A DNA stretch of 52,429 nt from a virus (Duplodnaviria; Caudoviricetes). The notes beneath the pieces are model-generated. The model was given only the letters and a program-made list of their open reading frames with translations. It was not told the DNA's origin and made no database searches. The position numbers and the translations under genes were made by a program. Positions 2,913-52,429 of the stretch are shown here, one piece after another. Numbering within the stretch: the stretch's first letter is position 1; each line of letters opens with the position of its first letter. The stretch spans positions 1 to 52,429 of the IMG/VR virus record IMGVR_UViG_3300037140_000067, one strand, 5' to 3'.

Positions 2913-3128
2913 TCATTGGGGCTTCTCCTTTTCAAAAACGATCTCGCGACCATCCTCAGACAAGTGCCACTTGGGATACGAGTCTGGATTCCGCTTGCGC
3001 CATTCAATCGAATCCGTCACAGCCTGAAGCGCGACCCGCTTGGCGGTCAACTTCTGCTCCAAGCGGGCGACTGACCGCTCGCATCCTGACCGCATCATCT
3101 CTAACTGTTGCATCGTTGCGTCTGTCAT
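2913..3128 (-). CDS. Hypothetical coiled-coil protein (71 aa)
   Basis: ATGA overlap with the upstream gene; GAGG RBS. Confidence 0.7.
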   Translation of the reverse strand: MTDATMQQLEMMRSGCERSVARLEQKLTAKRVALQAVTDSIEWRKRNPDSYPKWHLSEDGREIVFEKEKPQ

Positions 3129-3505
3129 TTCGCCACCTCTGCCAGAGCTTCCGAGGCAAGTTTCGCCTCGACTAGGCGCCGATACTCGCGCGTGGATGAG
3201 CATATAGAACCGAGCGAGCCGAGCCCCTTGCCGTTCTCATCGCGGACGATGCAGCAAAGCGATTCATGGATCTCGCCCGTTGCGCATGGACACTCTGGAT
3301 TGTCGCAGTCGCAACCGATGCAGTCGTCTTCGTTCCAATCGAAGTAGTAACCGAGCGCCGCGGCATCCCGTTCTGCTTTGGCAAGCTGCCTGGCGCATCG
3401 CGACCGGCCGGCCCTTGGAGTTTCCGTCTTGGGATCGTAGGAATAGCCAGCATGTTTGAGGAAGAACAGGTATGCGGCTTGCTTGGGAGTGGTTGGCTTA
3501 GACAT
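3125..3505 (-). CDS. Hypothetical Cys-containing protein (126 aa)
   Basis: Part of an overlapping operon chain; ends in SLGSIC...YRRLVEAKLASEAL. Confidence 0.75.
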   Translation of the reverse strand: MSKPTTPKQAAYLFFLKHAGYSYDPKTETPRAGRSRCARQLAKAERDAAALGYYFDWNEDDCIGCDCDNPECPCATGEIHESLCCIVRDENGKGLGSLGSICSSTREYRRLVEAKLASEALAEVAK

Positions 3506-3773
3506 TGGCCACCGCCGCTCTCTGCTTTAGTTCCCAGTCGGGTACAAATGCAGCGGAATAAGCTCCCAACCGTCGCGAGGTCGGGCCATCAGCTAGACGG
3601 AAGTTGCTCCAGTAGCACGGCACTGCGGAGGTGGTAAAGGCTTCATCGGCGGTAATCGGAAGCTCTGCAATCAGTTTGCGGTTCTGGTCGTAGAACCGAG
3701 CCAGCTTGGTCGATTCCAAAGTCACACCCGAAAGCTTCATCAGGTGGATGCGCATTTCAGTTCCTGTCGTCAT
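3498..3773 (-). CDS. Hypothetical protein (91 aa)
   Basis: GAGG RBS downstream of the promoter at 3824-3852. Confidence 0.7.
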   Translation of the reverse strand: MTTGTEMRIHLMKLSGVTLESTKLARFYDQNRKLIAELPITADEAFTTSAVPCYWSNFRLADGPTSRRLGAYSAAFVPDWELKQRAAVANV

Positions 3774-3823
3774 TGCTGGATACCTCTCTCAGCTATCAGT
3801 GACCTCTGTTCTGGTCTTGAGTG

Positions 3824-3852
3824 ATTAGATGCTTCCCCAAAGCCAATGTCAA
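3824..3852 (-). promoter_or_regulatory. Leftward sigma70-type promoter
   Basis: TTGACA-17 bp-TCTAAT on the - strand. Confidence 0.7.
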
Positions 3853-4153
3853 GACAATTCTTTAGATAAATGCAAAGTATTTTCGCGGTATCTATATATA
3901 GAGGAGTGGAACAGAGCGGGAGGAAGCCCCATCCCCCTCCCTGCTTGCCCCCCCCCGTTCTTTCCGAATCTGCGCGGTGCCCCCCTGGCGAGCTCCTGGG
4001 GCTGTCCTAGGGCCTCAGTGGGGCGTTGCCGCTTGTCTTGTCAGTAACTTAGGCGGAGGCCCAGGATGGCCGGCGGTTAGTTGTCTCCAATGGGGGAGGG
4101 TGAAGGCTCGGACTACCTCGAGCCCCGGATTTCAACTCTCCCAAAAATAACCC

Positions 4154-4191
4154 TTGACAGGTGATGATGACATAGGTGATGATGATGACAT
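4154..4191 (+). promoter_or_regulatory. Rightward promoter with tandem operator-like repeats
   Basis: TTGACA at 4154 followed by AGGTGATGATGACAT and AGGTGATGATGATGACAT, running into the ATG at 4190. Confidence 0.5.
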
Positions 4192-4432
4192 GAACAAATT
4201 ACGAGCATTGATCCAGTGGTTATGGGAGCTTGAAGTTGAGGAGCACAAGCATTGGTGCCCTATGGGGTGCGACTGTTACCACAGCTCCGTCTGCTGGTAC
4301 TGTACGGGCCTGTTTTGCTCCGCGATCGTGTGGAAAAAGTGCCCTAACTGCGAGGATAACCGTTTCAGAGTTTGCCATGGATCCATGGGGACGGGTGCTC
4401 GCGTGTGTGATTGCGGGTATGGGAGAGGCTGA
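4190..4432 (+). CDS. Cys-rich hypothetical protein (80 aa)
   Basis: Multiple CxxC/CxC motifs; TGATG coupling to the next gene. Confidence 0.65.
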   Translation: MNKLRALIQWLWELEVEEHKHWCPMGCDCYHSSVCWYCTGLFCSAIVWKKCPNCEDNRFRVCHGSMGTGARVCDCGYGRG

Positions 4433-4785
4433 TGTTGGATTGCAGGAAGTGCGGGCATCAGTGGAATCCGATAGTACCGACGCCGCTGAAGTGTCCTGCG
4501 TGCAATCAGCCGAGGTACTGGCTACCGAAAGTGAGGAATGTGAATGGAGCTTCTAGAGCAGATGAGCATGACGCGCGAGCAAAGGTTGGGAGAGTTGGGA
4601 AGCGAACCGCCGTGTCCTCAGTGCGGCAAGCCAAGGGTAAGCCGAAGCTCTTACATCCGGTGCAACCCGTGCGGGATGAACTGGGGGGAGGGGCAGGACA
4701 TATTCAAACATCCTCACATGAAGGCCATTCCGTCTACCGGGCCGGCGATCGACACTACTGCTCCGACTGCAAAGTGAATTTCTAA
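4432..4785 (+). CDS. Zn-ribbon protein (outer gene of nested pair 1)
   Basis: N-terminal CRKCGHQW...KCPACNQPRYW and C-terminal HEGH...YCSDC. RBS GGAGAGG; coupled at both ends. Confidence 0.7.
   Translation: MLDCRKCGHQWNPIVPTPLKCPACNQPRYWLPKVRNVNGASRADEHDARAKVGRVGKRTAVSSVRQAKGKPKLLHPVQPVRDELGGGAGHIQTSSHEGHSVYRAGDRHYCSDCKVNF
4544..4777 (+). CDS. Zn-ribbon protein (inner gene, +1 frame)
   Basis: CPQCG...CNPCGMNW; own GAGGA RBS. Confidence 0.65.
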   Translation: MELLEQMSMTREQRLGELGSEPPCPQCGKPRVSRSSYIRCNPCGMNWGEGQDIFKHPHMKAIPSTGPAIDTTAPTAK

Positions 4786-5078
4786 TGTGTAGGAGTCCCT
4801 ACTGGGACAGGGAGCGGGTCAATGATACTCAAAAAGATACTGTTTCAGGGGGTGGCGGTGGGGCTTCAGATCACCGCCGAGAACGAAGACGAAAAGGAAT
4901 TGCTGCGGTGTCTATCGGGGCTGAAAACGGCTCAGTCGAAGAAGTTCAATCGCGATCCACTGCCAGCCCTGATTCTATGCCCACTACTGCCGGGAGATGC
5001 CCTGTACACGAAGGAGTAGACTGCGGGTTCGCCAAGGCTGGCGGGTGGTGGTGCTCAACCGATGGGAGGATGCGATGA
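4785..5078 (+). CDS. Hypothetical protein (outer gene of nested pair 2)
   Basis: TAATG and ATGA couplings. Starts MCRSPYW and ends CPVH...CG...WWC. Confidence 0.55.
   Translation: MCRSPYWDRERVNDTQKDTVSGGGGGASDHRRERRRKGIAAVSIGAENGSVEEVQSRSTASPDSMPTTAGRCPVHEGVDCGFAKAGGWWCSTDGRMR
4822..5019 (+). CDS. Hypothetical protein (inner gene, +1 frame, 65 aa)
   Basis: GGGAG RBS; globular sequence GLQITAENEDEKELLRCL. Confidence 0.6.
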   Translation: MILKKILFQGVAVGLQITAENEDEKELLRCLSGLKTAQSKKFNRDPLPALILCPLLPGDALYTKE

Positions 5079-5212
5079 CGGATTTCTTAGCGGCGTTCGG
5101 ATATGGGCTGTTTTGCTGCTGGCTCGGATGGCTCGCGCGATCGATTCAGAAGGCTGAGATGAAGTCGTTTCCTGCCCCAAAGCGGGACGCGAAAGGAAGG
5201 TTCAAGCGATGA
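5075..5212 (+). CDS. Small membrane protein with C-terminal RDAKGRF motif
   Basis: GGAGG RBS; hydrophobic N-terminus. Confidence 0.7.
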   Translation: MTDFLAAFGYGLFCCWLGWLARSIQKAEMKSFPAPKRDAKGRFKR

Positions 5213-5385
5213 GCCTCTGGATCAAACTCGAAATTCGTAATGACGGAAAGGTCTATGTGTTCCAGAGCGAGAATGGTTACAAGTACGAGCCTTCAAGTTT
5301 ATTCGGGCACTCGCCCCGGGAGGCATTACTGAAGTTGGCCGACACGATGCAGCGCAGACCATCACACCCAGAGAATGCCCGATGA
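5209..5385 (+). CDS. Hypothetical protein (58 aa, not in the ORF track)
   Basis: MSLWIKLEIRNDGKVYVF...; ATGA overlaps on both sides. Confidence 0.6.
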   Translation: MSLWIKLEIRNDGKVYVFQSENGYKYEPSSLFGHSPREALLKLADTMQRRPSHPENAR

Positions 5386-5483
5386 TGCACTTCCTCTTCA
5401 ACTCCTGGTGGGGCGCCTGGATCATCGGGGTCGGATGTGGGTTCGCGTTCGTCAAGCCCGCATGGAAGGATGTGAAACGATGA
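5382..5483 (+). CDS. Small membrane peptide (33 aa, not in the ORF track)
   Basis: MMHFLFNSWWGAWIIGVGCGFAFVKPAWKDVKR; ATGA overlaps on both sides. Confidence 0.55.
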   Translation: MMHFLFNSWWGAWIIGVGCGFAFVKPAWKDVKR

Positions 5484-5614
5484 GCCTGTCCCCCACCGTC
5501 CTCGCGCAAGTCGCTACCATCCAAGCCAAGCTGCGGGAGCACACCATCGGCTCGCCACAGCCCACAGATAGCGTTGACAACCCAGTATGGGAAGACCCGA
5601 AAGGAACAAAATGA
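5480..5614 (+). CDS. Hypothetical protein (44 aa)
   Basis: Part of the ATGA coupling chain. Confidence 0.55.
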   Translation: MSLSPTVLAQVATIQAKLREHTIGSPQPTDSVDNPVWEDPKGTK

Positions 5615-5976
5615 CCCACCGCCGCATCAATCTCATCTACGCCGCCATCGCCACGCTTATATTCACAGTCGCGTGGTACGCCGCCCACCCACAGCAACCC
5701 AGACCCCCAGTTCTGCACCGCCCCATCTCTACCGCTTGGGATGTGCCTGCTGTCATGTTCACGACCCCAGCTTCACATCCATGCAATCACCAATGGCCTG
5801 CCGGGGCAGTGGTTGTCCCTGCGGTATGCATCACGGAAGACGAGACACACTGGAAATGTTCCGATAGAGCCAGGGCTCTCCTTCAAAGCGAGGACGGGGT
5901 ACACCACTGCATCCTCTTCCCTCAACAGCAAAAAGAAATAGTCACAGTTACTCACAAGGAGACGAAGAAACCATGA
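5611..5976 (+). CDS. Membrane-anchored Cys-containing protein
   Basis: AAGGA RBS; N-terminal TM helix LIYAAIATLIFTVAWYAA. Confidence 0.65.
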   Translation: MTHRRINLIYAAIATLIFTVAWYAAHPQQPRPPVLHRPISTAWDVPAVMFTTPASHPCNHQWPAGAVVVPAVCITEDETHWKCSDRARALLQSEDGVHHCILFPQQQKEIVTVTHKETKKP

Positions 5977-6161
5977 TCACAGAAGTCGTAGGAACCAAGC
6001 CCGCCGTCAAGCCCGAAACGCCCGTGAAGCTCAACCGCCACGTCGCGATCGCGCTCACCCACATGAAGCAGGAACGAGACACGCTCGACAAGAAGATCGC
6101 CACCCTCACCGCGGAGCGCGTGAAGGTCCACAAGGCAATTCTGGAGATCGAACCGGAGTAG
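5973..6161 (+). CDS. Short coiled-coil protein (62 aa)
   Basis: ATGA overlap; heptad pattern. Confidence 0.7.
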   Translation: MITEVVGTKPAVKPETPVKLNRHVAIALTHMKQERDTLDKKIATLTAERVKVHKAILEIEPE

Positions 6162-7200: not shown

Positions 7201-7554
7201 GCATGAAGTTGCCAGCGATTCACATATGCGGACATTCTCCCGACAATTCGGCTTGAACTCCCCAAAGACTACGTGCGTCTTGGCCGCTGCATTGCGCTCA
7301 ATCGGCTTATACCCGAGAGAGTAACCGGCCCCTTGCGCGCGCTACGCGTGCCCCTGGTCGATAGAGGAGCGTCCTTCTTCGGGAGGCGTGCGTAAGCAAA
7401 TGGGGCTTGTAGCCTGTCAGGGGTCCATACGAGCTAACGGCATACCGTTACTTCCCTGCTGAGAGTAAGTACCCTTGCTTTCAGTCTGTCCACCGAACAC
7501 TGGCATTATCAATTGGTTTTAGTCTTAGTTCTTGCTTCTAAAGGGGTTTATAGG

Positions 7555-7884
7555 ATGGATTACAAGGTGTCTTATGAATGGCCTACATCGAGCATAGCCT
7601 ACGGGAAGGAACACTTCCGCGAGAGCCGCTTGAAGACAAAGTATGGAATGACGGGCGAACAATTCGATCTCCTACTCCAAGATCAGGGCGGAGTTTGTAA
7701 AATATGTGGAAAAACTAATGCCCCAACCAGAATGAATTTGCTCGGAGTCGATCACTGCCACGCCACCGGGAAAATTAGGGGGCTGCTTTGCATAAAGTGC
7801 AATTCAGGACTCGGATTTTTTGAGGATGACATAAACCGCATGAAAGCAGCTATTGAATACCTCCTTTGTTCGCGCACACAATAA
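7555..7884 (+). CDS. Endonuclease VII-family (His-Me) nuclease, probably a free-standing homing endonuclease
   Basis: KYGMT...QGGVCKICG...VDHCHATGKIRGLLCIKCNSGLG. Confidence 0.9.
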   Translation: MDYKVSYEWPTSSIAYGKEHFRESRLKTKYGMTGEQFDLLLQDQGGVCKICGKTNAPTRMNLLGVDHCHATGKIRGLLCIKCNSGLGFFEDDINRMKAAIEYLLCSRTQ

Positions 7885-7921: not shown

Positions 7922-8149
7922 GTGAAGTCAAAGAAGCCCAGACCGAAGACGTGCCCTCTCTGCCGGAATCGGTACTGCTTGGCAATGGCTCAAGTCCACC
8001 CGGAAGTCGAGATAGCCTACGTGCCCCGGAATGAATGGCCTAAGAGTGTGGTAGAGAAGATGGACGCCGCGCTTGGGCGAACACCCCCCGACCGCATCAC
8101 CCAGGCCCGCAAGCAAGCGGAGGAATTACTTCAGAAGGTGACAACGTGA
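7922..8149 (+). CDS. Hypothetical protein (75 aa)
   Basis: CPLC motif; GTGA overlap with the next gene. Confidence 0.65.
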   Translation: MKSKKPRPKTCPLCRNRYCLAMAQVHPEVEIAYVPRNEWPKSVVEKMDAALGRTPPDRITQARKQAEELLQKVTT

Positions 8150-8391
8150 TCGACGAGGCCACCAGGATTCGGGTTATAAGAGCTATCCTCGGTCTGGAGT
8201 CTCAGGCGTTCGCGGCCAAGATTGGCGTCACTCCCTGCACGATGAGCAACTGGGAGAAGGGCCGATCCACCCCGCAGCGGGCTTTCCGAAAAAAACTATC
8301 AGAGCTTTGCGAAGAACATAAAATTTGCTTTCTGCCAAGCGGATGTCCCGTGCTGCAGGAAGACCTCATGCCCGTTCAGGAGACGACGTAA
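8146..8391 (+). CDS. XRE/Cro-like HTH regulator
   Basis: IRVIRAILGLESQAFAAKIGVTPCTMSNWEKGRSTP. Confidence 0.9.
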   Translation: MIDEATRIRVIRAILGLESQAFAAKIGVTPCTMSNWEKGRSTPQRAFRKKLSELCEEHKICFLPSGCPVLQEDLMPVQETT

Positions 8392-10387: not shown

Positions 10388-12523
10388 ATGTTCGCTGATT
10401 CGGTGATCGAATCCAAACTCGACCTACTCGAAGCCGAGTTTGGGTGGCGTCCAAAGCCCCATTCCATCGAAGAAGTAGACGCTTGGAAAAAGCAGCTTGC
10501 CACGGCCTTTGAGGAAGACTCCAAAGGCAACATCTACATGAAGCGCAAGCTCACCAAGTCAGAGCAGCGATTCATCGAGAATGAGCGCCTGATGGTCAGT
10601 GCGTCGTGCGGCTATTTCCTCACCCGCTACTACTACATCAAAGCCAAGAACCGCATCCTCCGCTTCGTGTTTCGCAGTGGGCAGTGGATTGTGTGGCGCA
10701 TCCTGCAAGAGTTGGACGCGATGGGTGTGTCGAAAGAGCTTCAGGTGCTGAAGGCCCGCAAGCTCGGCATCTCGACCCTCGCGGAAGGCATTATGACGTG
10801 GGGCGCACTCTTCATCCCCGGAGCGGCCTCGCAGATTGGATCTGCCGACGCGCAGAAAACTCAAGTCATGCTCGGTATGATGACGCTGGCCATCGACCAG
10901 CTACCATCATGGCTTCCTCCAACGCAGACGCGCTCGAAAACGAAGTCCGACCGAGCCATGCTGGAGTTCGAGCACATCGGCTCGCTCATCATCGTGCAGC
11001 CGGGTTCGATGATGGGCGGCATGGGACAGGGCACGACGCCGACCATGATCCATTTATCTGAGGTCAGTCAATTTACCAACCCGGTCCAGCAGCTTGACGA
11101 AGGACTGCTCAAGGCGGTCGAGTCCAGCCCCGAGGTTGTCTTCATTCTGGAGTCGACCGGAGACGCCGGCCATCGTTCCGCATGGTGGTGGACGGAGCAG
11201 TGGATTGCAAATCGAGACAATTACTGGCAGGGCGGATCGCGGTTCCTGCCAGTGTTCCTGCCGTGGCACACGACGCCCGAACTTTACCCCGGCGAGCATT
11301 GGCTCAAGAAGTTCCCCATGCCGGAGGGCTTCACTCCGAATCAAGACACCATCGACCACGTAACCCGCGCCGAAGCCTACGTGCGCAACACGGAGATGCT
11401 GAGTCGTGTGATCGGCAAGGATTGGACAATGCCGCTCACCCAGCAGTGGTATTGGCAGTACAACTACCTCGATCACAAGCGGCGGAGGGTCGAAAAGTCA
11501 TGGTTCCGCCAGATGCCGTGCGACGACTACGAGGCTCTTTTGGGCGAGCGTGACAAGGTGTACTCGCAGGATGCGATTGACGCCGTTGCGGACACCGTAG
11601 GCAAGGCCAGCGTCTACATGCTGGCTGGCGACGGCATGGAAGAGAAGCGCGAGCCCGAGGAGGCGCAAATCTGGTATGGCGCTGAGGCTCCCGCGCGCCA
11701 GCGGTTCCACTGGACCACGCCGAAGAAAGACAAAATGGAGTGGATGCTGGTGCCGCTCGCGCCTGTACCTGAGTTGACGTTCGACCCGCTCGAAAAGTTG
11801 CTGATCTGGAAGGAGCCGGAAGAGGGATACGACTACTCGGTTGGCGACGATACCGGGACGGGCGTTGGCGGCGACCGCTTCATCCTGAACGTCACCCGCC
11901 ACGGAACGAACGAGTTCCCCGACGAGCAGGTTGCGGAGTTCGCATCGGACTCGATCCCTACGGCGGAGCAGTACGCATGGATCGCGGCGGTGACGGCCTA
12001 CTATGCGAAGTACATGAATCCGGGGCCGAAGGGACATCCCAAGATTTGCCCTGAGATGCGGCGGAAGTTTGGCGACCTCCCCTACCACCAGACGCAATTG
12101 CTGGGCTTCCGGCGGTGGCATGAGTGGGGGCAGGGGTTCGACCGCAAGACGTTCGAGGATAAGGTTGGCAAGCACGGGCGCATCGGCTGGTTCACGAACG
12201 AGTGGAGCCGTCCGATGCTGCTTTCAGCCTTCCAGTATGCGGTCGAAAACGGCTGGTATGTGGTGCGGTCGAAGTGGCTTCAGGACGAGATGAAAGAGTT
12301 GGAGCAGAAGTTCATGGCGTCGGGCAAGACCCGCGTAGATCACGCATCGGGAAAGCATGACGACCGGGTATTCGCGGCGGCGATGGCGTATTGGACACTG
12401 CATCAGCGCAGTGAAATGATGCAAAGGATGAAATTACGCTATGAGCAGCCCCAAAAGAGTGGGATTATTATTGAGCGAGGGCCAGCGGTGATGACGGTGG
12501 AAATTACGGGGAAAACGCGATGA
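10388..12523 (+). CDS. terL: Terminase large subunit
   Basis: Walker A LKARKLGIST, Walker B MIHLSE, coupling motif EST, nuclease DTGTG and HDDRVFA. Confidence 0.93.
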   Translation: MFADSVIESKLDLLEAEFGWRPKPHSIEEVDAWKKQLATAFEEDSKGNIYMKRKLTKSEQRFIENERLMVSASCGYFLTRYYYIKAKNRILRFVFRSGQWIVWRILQELDAMGVSKELQVLKARKLGISTLAEGIMTWGALFIPGAASQIGSADAQKTQVMLGMMTLAIDQLPSWLPPTQTRSKTKSDRAMLEFEHIGSLIIVQPGSMMGGMGQGTTPTMIHLSEVSQFTNPVQQLDEGLLKAVESSPEVVFILESTGDAGHRSAWWWTEQWIANRDNYWQGGSRFLPVFLPWHTTPELYPGEHWLKKFPMPEGFTPNQDTIDHVTRAEAYVRNTEMLSRVIGKDWTMPLTQQWYWQYNYLDHKRRRVEKSWFRQMPCDDYEALLGERDKVYSQDAIDAVADTVGKASVYMLAGDGMEEKREPEEAQIWYGAEAPARQRFHWTTPKKDKMEWMLVPLAPVPELTFDPLEKLLIWKEPEEGYDYSVGDDTGTGVGGDRFILNVTRHGTNEFPDEQVAEFASDSIPTAEQYAWIAAVTAYYAKYMNPGPKGHPKICPEMRRKFGDLPYHQTQLLGFRRWHEWGQGFDRKTFEDKVGKHGRIGWFTNEWSRPMLLSAFQYAVENGWYVVRSKWLQDEMKELEQKFMASGKTRVDHASGKHDDRVFAAAMAYWTLHQRSEMMQRMKLRYEQPQKSGIIIERGPAVMTVEITGKTR

Positions 12524-51689: not shown

Positions 51690-52429
51690 GGCTACGCCTC
51701 CTGAGCGTTTGCGGTGGTTATCATGCTGTCGAGTTGCGTCTTGATTGCGGTCCAGTCGTGGCCCTTGCTCTCGCAGAACTTCATCTGCTCGTCGGGTGTC
51801 CAGTCGAGCATGGCAAAAGCTGCCTTGACATCTTGGGGCATGAGCGGGGCTTTGAACCAATCGAGGATGGCGCTGTACTTCCGGGCGGGGATGAGGCTGC
51901 CGGCCTTTTGTCCGACAAACTCATAGAGTTGCGCGGCCTTACGCTCGGTGCGCTTCAGTTCTTCCTTGATGTGCGCGGCCTCCTCGTTAGTGATGGGGGT
52001 AGCGTCTTCCAGGACTGCGGCGCGAGATGCGGCCTCAGTGCGTTGCTGGGCTCCAGTAAGGTCTTTGCCGCGTTGTGCTGCGTTCTTGGATACCTGGGCA
52101 TCCTCGTTCTCTTCTGGCGCAACACCAGCCAACCCGCACAGTCCTTGCCGACGCGCATACGAGTGTTCCGCGCCGAATGTCTGGGGATCATTGTTCGGAC
52201 CGAGTGGGATGCCGTCATCGTTTGCCCACTGGCCGGACGAGTGGTGCAGTTCGGTTACGAGATACATCCGGCCTTCAACACGACGGATTGGTTGGCGTAC
52301 GCAGATCTCTTCGGCAGTGAGGCACGGAAGAATGGCGGTTAGCACGTCGGCAAGATCGGCGTAGGCATAGTCGTAACTGTATTCCTTGCCGCTGCCCTTA
52401 GCTGTCCCTTTGACGGTGGCCTTCCTGGT
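50855..52429. repeat. Right copy of imperfect terminal direct repeat (partner 1-1575)
   Basis: Constant offset of 50854 from the left copy. Confidence 0.97.
51692..52429 (-). CDS. erf: ERF-family protein, allele B (5' part off the window edge)
   Basis: Nearly the same protein as 838-1659; differences are mostly synonymous. Confidence 0.88.
   Translation of the reverse strand, partial: TRKATVKGTAKGSGKEYSYDYAYADLADVLTAILPCLTAEEICVRQPIRRVEGRMYLVTELHHSSGQWANDDGIPLGPNNDPQTFGAEHSYARRQGLCGLAGVAPEENEDAQVSKNAAQRGKDLTGAQQRTEAASRAAVLEDATPITNEEAAHIKEELKRTERKAAQLYEFVGQKAGSLIPARKYSAILDWFKAPLMPQDVKAAFAMLDWTPDEQMKFCESKGHDWTAIKTQLDSMITTANAQEA

Follow-up and report, generated by a model that had tools for sequence, protein, structure and literature searches.

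The stretch of DNA considered here (the window) is the complete virus record IMGVR_UViG_3300037140_000067 of IMG/VR (Duplodnaviria; Caudoviricetes), 52,429 bases long with 58.6% GC, and its positions 4432 to 5078 hold two consecutive pairs of open reading frames (ORFs) in each of which a shorter ORF lies wholly inside a longer one, on the same strand and in the +1 frame. The longer and shorter members are called outer1 and inner1 in the first pair, and outer2 and inner2 in the second. As argued below from relatives in metagenomes, pair 1 is very likely to be a genuine, deeply conserved nested pair, and the odds that pair 2 is dual coding as well (i.e. that inner2 encodes a protein) are about even. 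The parts of the two pairs, including their Shine–Dalgarno (SD) sequences, are as follows.

4432–4785, plus strand: outer1, 117 amino acids (aa), with its ATG at 4432 and a TAA stop at 4783–4785
4432–4521, plus strand: N-terminal C4 zinc ribbon of outer1 (residues 1–30)
4522–4716, plus strand: disordered linker of outer1 (residues 31–95)
4717–4782, plus strand: C-terminal type A HHCC knuckle of outer1 (residues 96–117)
4533–4537, plus strand: SD of inner1, GAGGA, 6 nt before the inner1 ATG
4544–4777, plus strand: inner1, 77 aa, +1 frame relative to outer1
4544–4693, plus strand: folded residues 1–50 of inner1, with a C4 zinc ribbon (C24, C27, C40, C43), followed by a disordered tail
4785–5078, plus strand: outer2, 97 aa, starting on a TAATG overlap
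4785–4823, plus strand: end of a zinc ribbon in outer2, reduced to the last Cys and SPYWDRER, with a low-complexity linker next
4992–5075, plus strand: type C Cys/His tail of outer2 (residues 70–97)
4810–4814, plus strand: SD of inner2, GGGAG, 7 nt before the inner2 ATG
4822–5019, plus strand: inner2, 65 aa, +1 frame relative to outer2, an orphan ORF without a zinc ligand set

An initial annotation, made from the letters alone, had described these ORFs as two nested pairs of one design within an unbroken coupled chain, and its account of the layout is borne out by the sequence. The four ORFs lie at the coordinates it gave, and the chain is coupled through TGATG at 4430–4434 (where an upstream ORF, 4190–4432, ends on the A of the outer1 ATG), TAATG at 4783–4787 and ATGA at 5075–5078. 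Both outer proteins have a YW motif, a Val-Asn (VN) and a C-terminal Cys/His set (CNQPRYW...VN and H96/H99/C110/C113 in outer1, CRSPYW...VN and C72/H75/C80/C90 in outer2), inner1 has the CxxC...CxxC arrangement (CPQC...CNPC), and the nested starts lie in GTGAATG (4540–4546) and GTCAATG (4818–4824), each behind an SD of its own. If outer2 were absent, a 55-nt gap would remain between inner2 and the next gene.

By themselves, four open frames in a single genome are not significant. ATG-started alternative-frame ORFs of at least 65 codons number 25 within the 29.5 kb of long genes in the window, and when synonymous codons were resampled, the probability that the outer frame is open given the inner protein was 0.12 for pair 1 and 0.09 for pair 2, the converse probability (inner frame open given the outer protein) being 0.21 and 0.38. 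Since single-genome openness is within chance, significance must come from relatives. Composition within the window hints at a frame switch, with GC at third codon positions (GC3) being high in the outer frame at the N-termini (0.70 and 0.83) and in the outer2 tail (0.75), and high in the inner frames over the nested parts (0.69 in inner1, 0.67 in inner2). The same figures could be turned to another account in which only the inner frames (4544–4777 and 4822–5019) are genes, the outer ORFs being a short zinc-ribbon ORF or remnant that runs by chance through a GC-rich neighbour. Such an account draws on the abundance of alternative-frame ORFs in the window and on a GC3 that favours the inner frames in the nested parts, and further on three relatives: L002, where a stand-alone zinc ribbon merely overlaps its neighbour, P0026, with the same head and another C-terminus, and L005, whose outer frame continues over a further, unrelated gene.

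The relatives of pair 1 are numerous. Protein searches returned 21 homologues of inner1 in addition to the window's own protein, IMG/VR contributed one locus (L001, 77% identity) and a family profile retrieved 70 metagenome loci, the family alignment having 13 invariant columns. Full-length homologues of outer1 (P0023, P0024 and L001) are of equal length with the same C-terminus, and the outer ORFs in relatives span 117–154 codons. Gene callers disallow long same-strand overlaps, which explains why in databases each contig supplies either the outer or the inner protein, never both. Over the roughly 75 codons of the inner gene, 56 of 59 distinct relatives keep open the frame one base upstream of the inner frame, which is the outer frame, L053, L071 and L072 (the last a doubtful family member) being the three that do not; one relative has an open third frame. 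The mean openness expected for the outer frame is 0.026 when the inner protein is kept and synonymous codons are redrawn from background usage, or 0.19 when each gene's own codons are permuted, which is conservative. Grouping the sequences at 85% nucleotide identity over the most conserved 90-nt core block gives 42 clusters, in 40 of which the outer frame is open. The avoidance of stops is also visible in codon choice, T occurring at the inner third position in 0.2% of cases before AA/AG/GA codons (n=1311) vs 16.5% elsewhere (n=3267), and the first Cys codon of the CNxCG motif being TGC 56 times and TGT once. The initial annotation had held that stops in the outer frame of relatives would speak against dual coding, and on that count pair 1 withstands the comparison.

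Constraint moreover changes frame along the locus. In the inner zinc-ribbon core (n=51), entropy by inner codon position is 0.61/0.52/1.08 bits and amino-acid identity between pairs averages 0.73 in the inner frame vs 0.48 in the outer one. In the tail, taken as the final 18 codons of the outer ORF, the signature belongs to the outer frame. In type B tails (CxHG-6-C-6-C; n=25) entropy by outer position is 0.71/0.80/1.28, with an identity of 0.61 in the outer vs 0.33 in the inner frame, and in type A tails (HxxH...CxxC; n=12), the type found in the window, it is 0.66/0.78/1.27, with identities of 0.52 and 0.27, respectively. The account in which only the inner frames are genes is thereby already contradicted for pair 1, because it predicts an outer frame open in 2.6% of relatives and not in 56/59, and offers no place for the near absence of T at stop-creating synonymous sites, for the coding signature and higher amino-acid identity of the tails in the outer frame or for different heads that are all fused in the same frame. 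For pair 2, it has to contend with 13 invariant tail residues common to outer2, P0028, P0029 and P0031, and as a whole it is extremely improbable.

The inner gene has start signals of its own in the relatives. About 39 codons separate its ATG from the motif, an SD-like motif precedes this ATG by 7–16 nt in 47 of 57, and many loci have an inner-frame stop 0–5 codons upstream. When 70-nt segments spanning the inner start were folded for 15 loci, no excess structure (z from -0.77 to +1.78) and no conserved hairpin over the SD emerged. At the level of sequence comparison, both pair-1 frames are thus shown to be maintained by selection, with a constraint that switches frame and an inner gene that has its own start signals, which would place pair 1 among the better-supported nested gene pairs in DNA phages. 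The dual coding claimed initially holds in this sense for pair 1 (56/59 open frames, a codon signature that switches frame, an own SD and ATG) and is not established for pair 2, where inner2 is without relatives.

A constraint that changes frame twice along the locus is also what a single recoded gene would show, with head, inner core and tail fused through programmed frameshifting (+1 or -1), through a hop of the ribosome or through an intron. This is very improbable, since in many loci the inner ATG follows a stop by 0–5 codons and the inner gene is equipped with an SD of its own, a canonical slippery heptamer (X XXY YYZ) between core and tail occurs in 11/57 loci only, no Rfam family (intron or frameshift element) matches positions 3700–5700, no Met is conserved before the tail and, finally, the outer frame is kept open across the core, which neither a hop nor an intron nor a shift would require. 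A translational hop, an intron and a separate tail microgene were each rejected on the grounds of the outer frame open across the core, the missing conserved start before the tail and the lack of a matching RNA family. The simplest reading is that outer head, linker and tail form one polypeptide, because the tail is in frame with the head, no conserved start codon (no conserved Met) was found before the tail in relatives and the frame between them is kept open.

Structure prediction provides an idea of how two proteins might share this DNA. The AlphaFold model of outer1 (from a 45-sequence alignment) has an N-terminal ribbon at residues 1–30 (pLDDT 80–84), a disordered middle (pLDDT 43–57), as had been proposed initially for the linker that hosts the inner gene, and a C-terminal beta-hairpin at residues 100–117 (pLDDT 85–89). 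That of inner1 (56 sequences) has two short helices and four strands in residues 1–50 (pLDDT 80–88), residues 61–77 being poor (pLDDT 54–63). In these models order and disorder are reciprocal, the folded part of each protein lying opposite the disordered part of the other, so that each DNA stretch would serve one folded domain only. Classification of the proteins was less productive. Outer1 and inner1, at 17.9 and 14.8 bits, missed the Pfam zinc-ribbon cutoff (Zn_ribbon_8 and others, 34.4 bits), neither the four proteins nor their neighbours scored above cutoff in Pfam, PHROGs or NCBIfam, Foldseek found no match to either pair-1 model in the PDB at E <= 0.001, and sequence searches of the PDB gave weak L37ae matches or none. 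In the ESM Atlas, the outer homologue P0023 matched generic zinc ribbons only.

The heads of the outer proteins are of more than one kind. A first motif-based sorting of 48 heads gave 18 zinc ribbons, 18 that resemble ribbon-helix-helix (RHH) domains and 12 unclassified, and a second one with slightly wider patterns (n=49) gave 21, 24 and 4, respectively. With a cutoff of 20.5 bits for Pfam RHH_1, the heads of L049 (20.6) and L065 (22.8) pass and that of L029 (19.3) falls short, and the L038 head has FitA-like and ParD matches; outer1 and outer2 of the window have no RHH match in Pfam. Heads and outer genes also occur in less regular forms. L002 has, at 3001–3147, a stand-alone 48-aa zinc ribbon that is 58% identical to the outer1 head, lacks the tail and overlaps the next (membrane-protein) gene by 34 nt. 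In L018 (284–1088) the outer-frame ORF runs to 268 codons, an extra zinc ribbon and a His-rich, HNH-like stretch preceding the usual head. In the close relative L005 (1320–2102) the outer gene has no stop after the tail, probably because it was lost, and reads on for about 120 codons, crossing a second nested ORF (1753–1947) that is homologous to the non-nested gene 5973–6161 of the window (33% identity, E 6e-7) and ending in another Cys/His-rich stretch.

What is exchanged within the family was addressed with a maximum-likelihood tree of 49 inner proteins. The tree falls into two clades (98/95 support) that split the proteins exactly by the tail of their host gene, type A or A-like (21 rows) vs type B or B-like (28 rows), and zinc-ribbon and RHH heads are intermixed in both. 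Mapped on this tree, the combination of a zinc ribbon with a type B tail needs 9 changes and that of an RHH head with a type B tail 8, the starred branches forcing at least 5 each. A search of IMG/VR by the DNA pattern of the type B tail alone retrieved 10 loci, 10/10 with an intact inner ORF. Because the tree splits by tail type and all loci found through the tail carry the inner gene, these comparisons show inner gene and tail to be co-inherited, in all appearance, as a unit, and the putative DNA-binding head of the outer protein to be repeatedly swapped. The idea of exchangeable passenger genes, put forward initially, is therefore reversed for pair 1, whose family keeps the same nested gene (10/10 tail-found loci, tree by tail type) and exchanges the head of the host instead; pair 2 does differ in its inner ORF, one without relatives.

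A further possibility, in effect the passenger idea again, is that the nested gene is a selfish or mobile insertion carried in frame in a tolerant loop of the host gene. An element of this sort has been published, the ShiLan insertion in phage methylase genes, which, as far as the summary in PMC11855218 goes, hides an out-of-frame HNH homing endonuclease. The likeness lies in a stretch that is read in frame as a tolerated loop of the host protein and encodes a second protein in another frame. The type C relatives P0029 and P0031, with shorter, ordinary-looking linkers, the different ORF in the slot of pair 2 and the ability of the inner gene to stand alone in L053 would all suit such an origin. 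However, ShiLan hides its endonuclease in a sporadic, mobile insertion, whereas the nested gene here is a zinc ribbon without a nuclease motif that matches generic zinc ribbons only, and no nuclease family was found for inner1 or inner2 in Pfam, PHROGs or NCBIfam. All 10 relatives found through the tail (type C linkers not being covered at the DNA level) contain the nested gene, which is co-inherited with the tail of its host. The tree of inner proteins mirrors the tail type, giving no sign of independent movement, and no presence/absence polymorphism of the inner gene was seen among close relatives. A mobile origin is on these grounds improbable, and co-inheritance of inner gene and tail is the preferred reading.

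Pair 2 is a different case. Outer2 has full-length homologues, three being found in a library of 1.84 billion representatives. The zinc ribbon of P0028 (E 3.5e-10) is complete, ends in CKSPYWDRE and is followed by a linker and an outer2-like tail; P0029 and P0031 have the same tail behind heads that are RHH-like (by eye and by analogy), and 13 residues are invariant across the four type C tails. Since these proteins pair their heads with the same tail, outer2 would be of the same architecture with a third tail type (C), having lost the first three of the four zinc-ribbon cysteines, which are missing from its sequence. In an hhalign comparison with the pair-1 outer profile, its tail resembles the pair-1 tails with a probability of 88.9% (E 2.4e-6). 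At the DNA level, the outer2 junction of YWDRER, SD and ATG aligns with the junctions in L028, L055 and L024, the ATG there being the start of the inner zinc-ribbon gene, and further patches of pair 2 align with pair-1 relatives, e.g. a stretch read as FNRDP. Pair 2 thus looks like an adjacent, diverged copy of pair 1, and common descent of the outer genes best explains the shared design. That outer2 is still read is suggested by its intact tail, a frame open over inner2 (P = 0.09) and the TAATG/ATGA coupling to its neighbours.

For inner2 the whole case for coding is made by composition and start context. Its GC by codon position (0.61/0.33/0.67) is typical of coding sequence, and the same stretch read in the outer2 frame has a GC3 of 0.33, below the minimum of 0.39 among 885 66-codon windows of real genes. 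The Atlas model is of low confidence (pLDDT 0.55) and its score of 0.84 is below the lead threshold, and scans of IMG/VR with inner2 and outer2 returned no relative. Homology searches thus stand at three proteins with homologues (inner1, outer1 and outer2) and one, inner2, with none. Pair 2 might then be a decaying duplicate in which outer2 and inner2 are both non-functional, with frames open by recent descent and chance. Outer2 does lack three of four zinc-ribbon cysteines, inner2 is an orphan with a low-confidence model, its frame would be open with a probability of 0.38 given outer2, and, from the DNA alignment, it seems to retain some likeness to the inner family without the Cys codons. 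Decay seems more difficult to reconcile with 13 invariant tail residues that are all intact, with an outer2 frame that is open across inner2 and coupled on both sides, and with the typical coding composition and good SD of inner2, and we regard it as rather unlikely.

These results can be assembled into a mechanism. A single mRNA would have two start sites. Initiation at 4432 would give the outer protein, made of a DNA-binding head (a C4 zinc ribbon in the window, a ribbon-helix-helix in many relatives), a disordered linker of about 65 residues and a 20-residue Cys/His zinc knuckle, and initiation in the +1 frame, at the SD-ATG inside the gene (4544), would give a zinc-ribbon protein of 77 residues. 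The folded core of the inner protein would be encoded opposite the outer linker, and the outer knuckle opposite the disordered end of the inner protein. In pair 2, directly behind, the outer gene would have lost most of its head and conserved its tail, inner2 occupying the homologous slot either as an inner gene that has lost its zinc ribbon or as an unrelated ORF. Both pair-1 proteins are presumably made and presumably bind zinc. Of 18 loci scanned, 8 have a small terminase ORF (as recognized by PHROGs) as the immediate upstream neighbour on the same strand (the scan left out L024 and L010 and covered L019 partly), and in L052 the order is small terminase (TerS), module, large terminase (TerL). 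Because of this position, often directly after the small terminase gene and once between the small and the large one, we would guess that the two proteins work jointly, bound to DNA, as an accessory of the packaging or late operon. A leader that is AT-rich or carries repeats precedes the outer gene in L001 and L004, where this is the first gene.

Taken together, the explanation that we consider likely is that pair 1 is a real, old and obligately nested module of uncultivated soil and peat phages and pair 2 a diverged copy of it. Several findings weigh against it. All relatives are metagenome assemblies, most of them found via the inner protein, so that the counts share ancestry, and no RNA sequencing runs containing the stretch were found. 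The nested arrangement is not absolute, given an inner gene without outer frame or tail in L053 (641–950) and, in L071 (1346–1733), an outer-frame stop at the motif with a recognisable tail further on. Beyond generic zinc ribbons, no family, fold or solved structure was matched. As for the genomic setting, the family scans run recognised no small terminase gene in the window, and the large terminase is represented only by a weak match (10388–12523) 5.6 kb downstream of the module. For pair 2, the outer2 tail is weakly similar to the pair-1 family in other comparisons (HMMER E 0.27, profile-profile probability 12.8%), inner2 has no homologue among 5.8 billion proteins except the window's own entry and no similarity to the inner-family profiles (hhalign E 0.32 and 0.28), and the DNA of type C relatives amounts to a contig-end fragment with the linker cut off, a search of genome contigs yielding no further one. 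A bolder version, in which the module is an ancient unit that exists only in nested form, a DNA-binding adaptor with swappable head and zinc knuckle built around a zinc-ribbon partner, the two binding each other at the packaging or late operon, nesting locking the partners together through head-shuffling recombination and the second copy being a slot that yields a new, unrelated protein, is speculative and, taken whole, doubtful.

The best known embedded genes of phages, the Rz/Rz1 spanins of lambda-like phages, likewise consist of a +1-frame gene with its own ribosome-binding site inside another gene, both products being needed. The outer product has an N-terminal membrane segment and the inner one is a lipoprotein with a lipobox Cys. 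Pair 1 shares with them a gene wholly embedded in the +1 frame of the same strand with its own start, but spanins are the membrane and lipoprotein subunits of a lysis cassette, whereas the module proteins are, from sequence, soluble Cys/His proteins encoded beside terminase or early genes, the host gene having in addition a modular head domain. In translation, neither outer protein has a hydrophobic segment and neither inner protein a signal or lipobox, and PHROGs returned no spanin match, in agreement with the early claim that the module is unrelated to Rz/Rz1. The embedded spanin genes are outlined in PMC5295617.

In the overprinted genes of small viruses, one partner is typically disordered. 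Pair 1 resembles them in that a long overlap on one strand sets an ordered stretch in one frame against a disordered one in the other, and differs in that it resides in a 52-kb double-stranded DNA (dsDNA) phage without obvious size pressure and that disorder is reciprocal; general overviews of overprinting are found in the reviews PMC8227390 and PMC6195259. RHH regulators and antitoxins with a disordered C-terminal arm (RHH_1, FitA-like, ParD) offer another parallel, many outer proteins starting with an RHH followed by a long disordered region. They differ from outer1 of the window, which has a zinc ribbon, and from the module in general, which has a conserved C-terminal Cys/His knuckle and a partner gene that is nested and not downstream. 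No toxin family matched the inner proteins in Pfam or NCBIfam (PADLOC was not searched). The inner CxxC...CxxC ribbon is also reminiscent of ribosomal protein L37ae/eL43, a name that one database record bears, but with 16.1 bits vs a cutoff of 87 in NCBIfam and a PDB profile E of 0.06 this would be a likeness of fold type, not of family.

To our knowledge, dsDNA phages offer few examples of long overlaps on one strand for which selection on both frames is documented. In the pair-1 family, one nested pair would be represented by about 40 independent lineages in which constraint switches cleanly from frame to frame and order and disorder are reciprocal, and the family could serve as a natural test bed for how two proteins share DNA, for whether nesting shields a partnership from mosaic recombination and for whether a nested slot can generate new genes. 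It also draws attention to a recurrent, unannotated component that many soil and peat phages have beside their terminase genes. Peat and permafrost metagenomes contain the stretch itself, and in four DNA runs the contigs are identical to the window wherever the region is covered, without population variants. The module was not found in 185,579 species genomes (2 matches to the inner profile, both false on inspection), blastn of positions 4150–5620 against 50,697 phage records gave no match, and a literature search at the level of abstracts located no description of it.

Immediately around the two pairs lie the following features.

4154–4183, plus strand: promoter-like site (TTGACA, 18 nt, GATGAT)
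4159–4170 and 4174–4185, plus strand: two direct repeats AGGTGATGATGA at the promoter-like site, from a repeat scan
4190–4432, plus strand: upstream ORF, 80 aa with 13 cysteines, whose TGA stop overlaps the outer1 ATG (TGATG)
5075–5212, plus strand: next gene, 45 aa, whose ATG overlaps the outer2 stop (ATGA)

The promoter-like call is weak, since the consensus scan found 1 site vs 1.0 expected; the AGGTGATGATGA repeats are a possible operator. The upstream ORF has no family match in Pfam, PHROGs or the other family scans. It looks like an insertion, because in the relative L004, which lacks this Cys-rich ORF, the same Asp-rich GATGAT stretch runs as a leader straight into the outer gene, which comes first.

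Recognisable genes are few in the rest of the window and comprise, from family scans, Erf-like recombinases, helicases, an endonuclease VII and the weak large-terminase match. The same rightward operon includes, after the module and before the putative large terminase, plus-strand genes for a recombination endonuclease VII (7513–7884; Pfam E 6.9e-23) and a small helix-turn-helix protein (8146–8391). Genes for Erf-like single-strand annealing proteins are found on the minus strand at both ends of the record (838–1836 and 51692–52342; PHROG E 1e-23 and 3e-15, respectively), which could represent the terminal redundancy of a circularly permuted genome or two paralogues.

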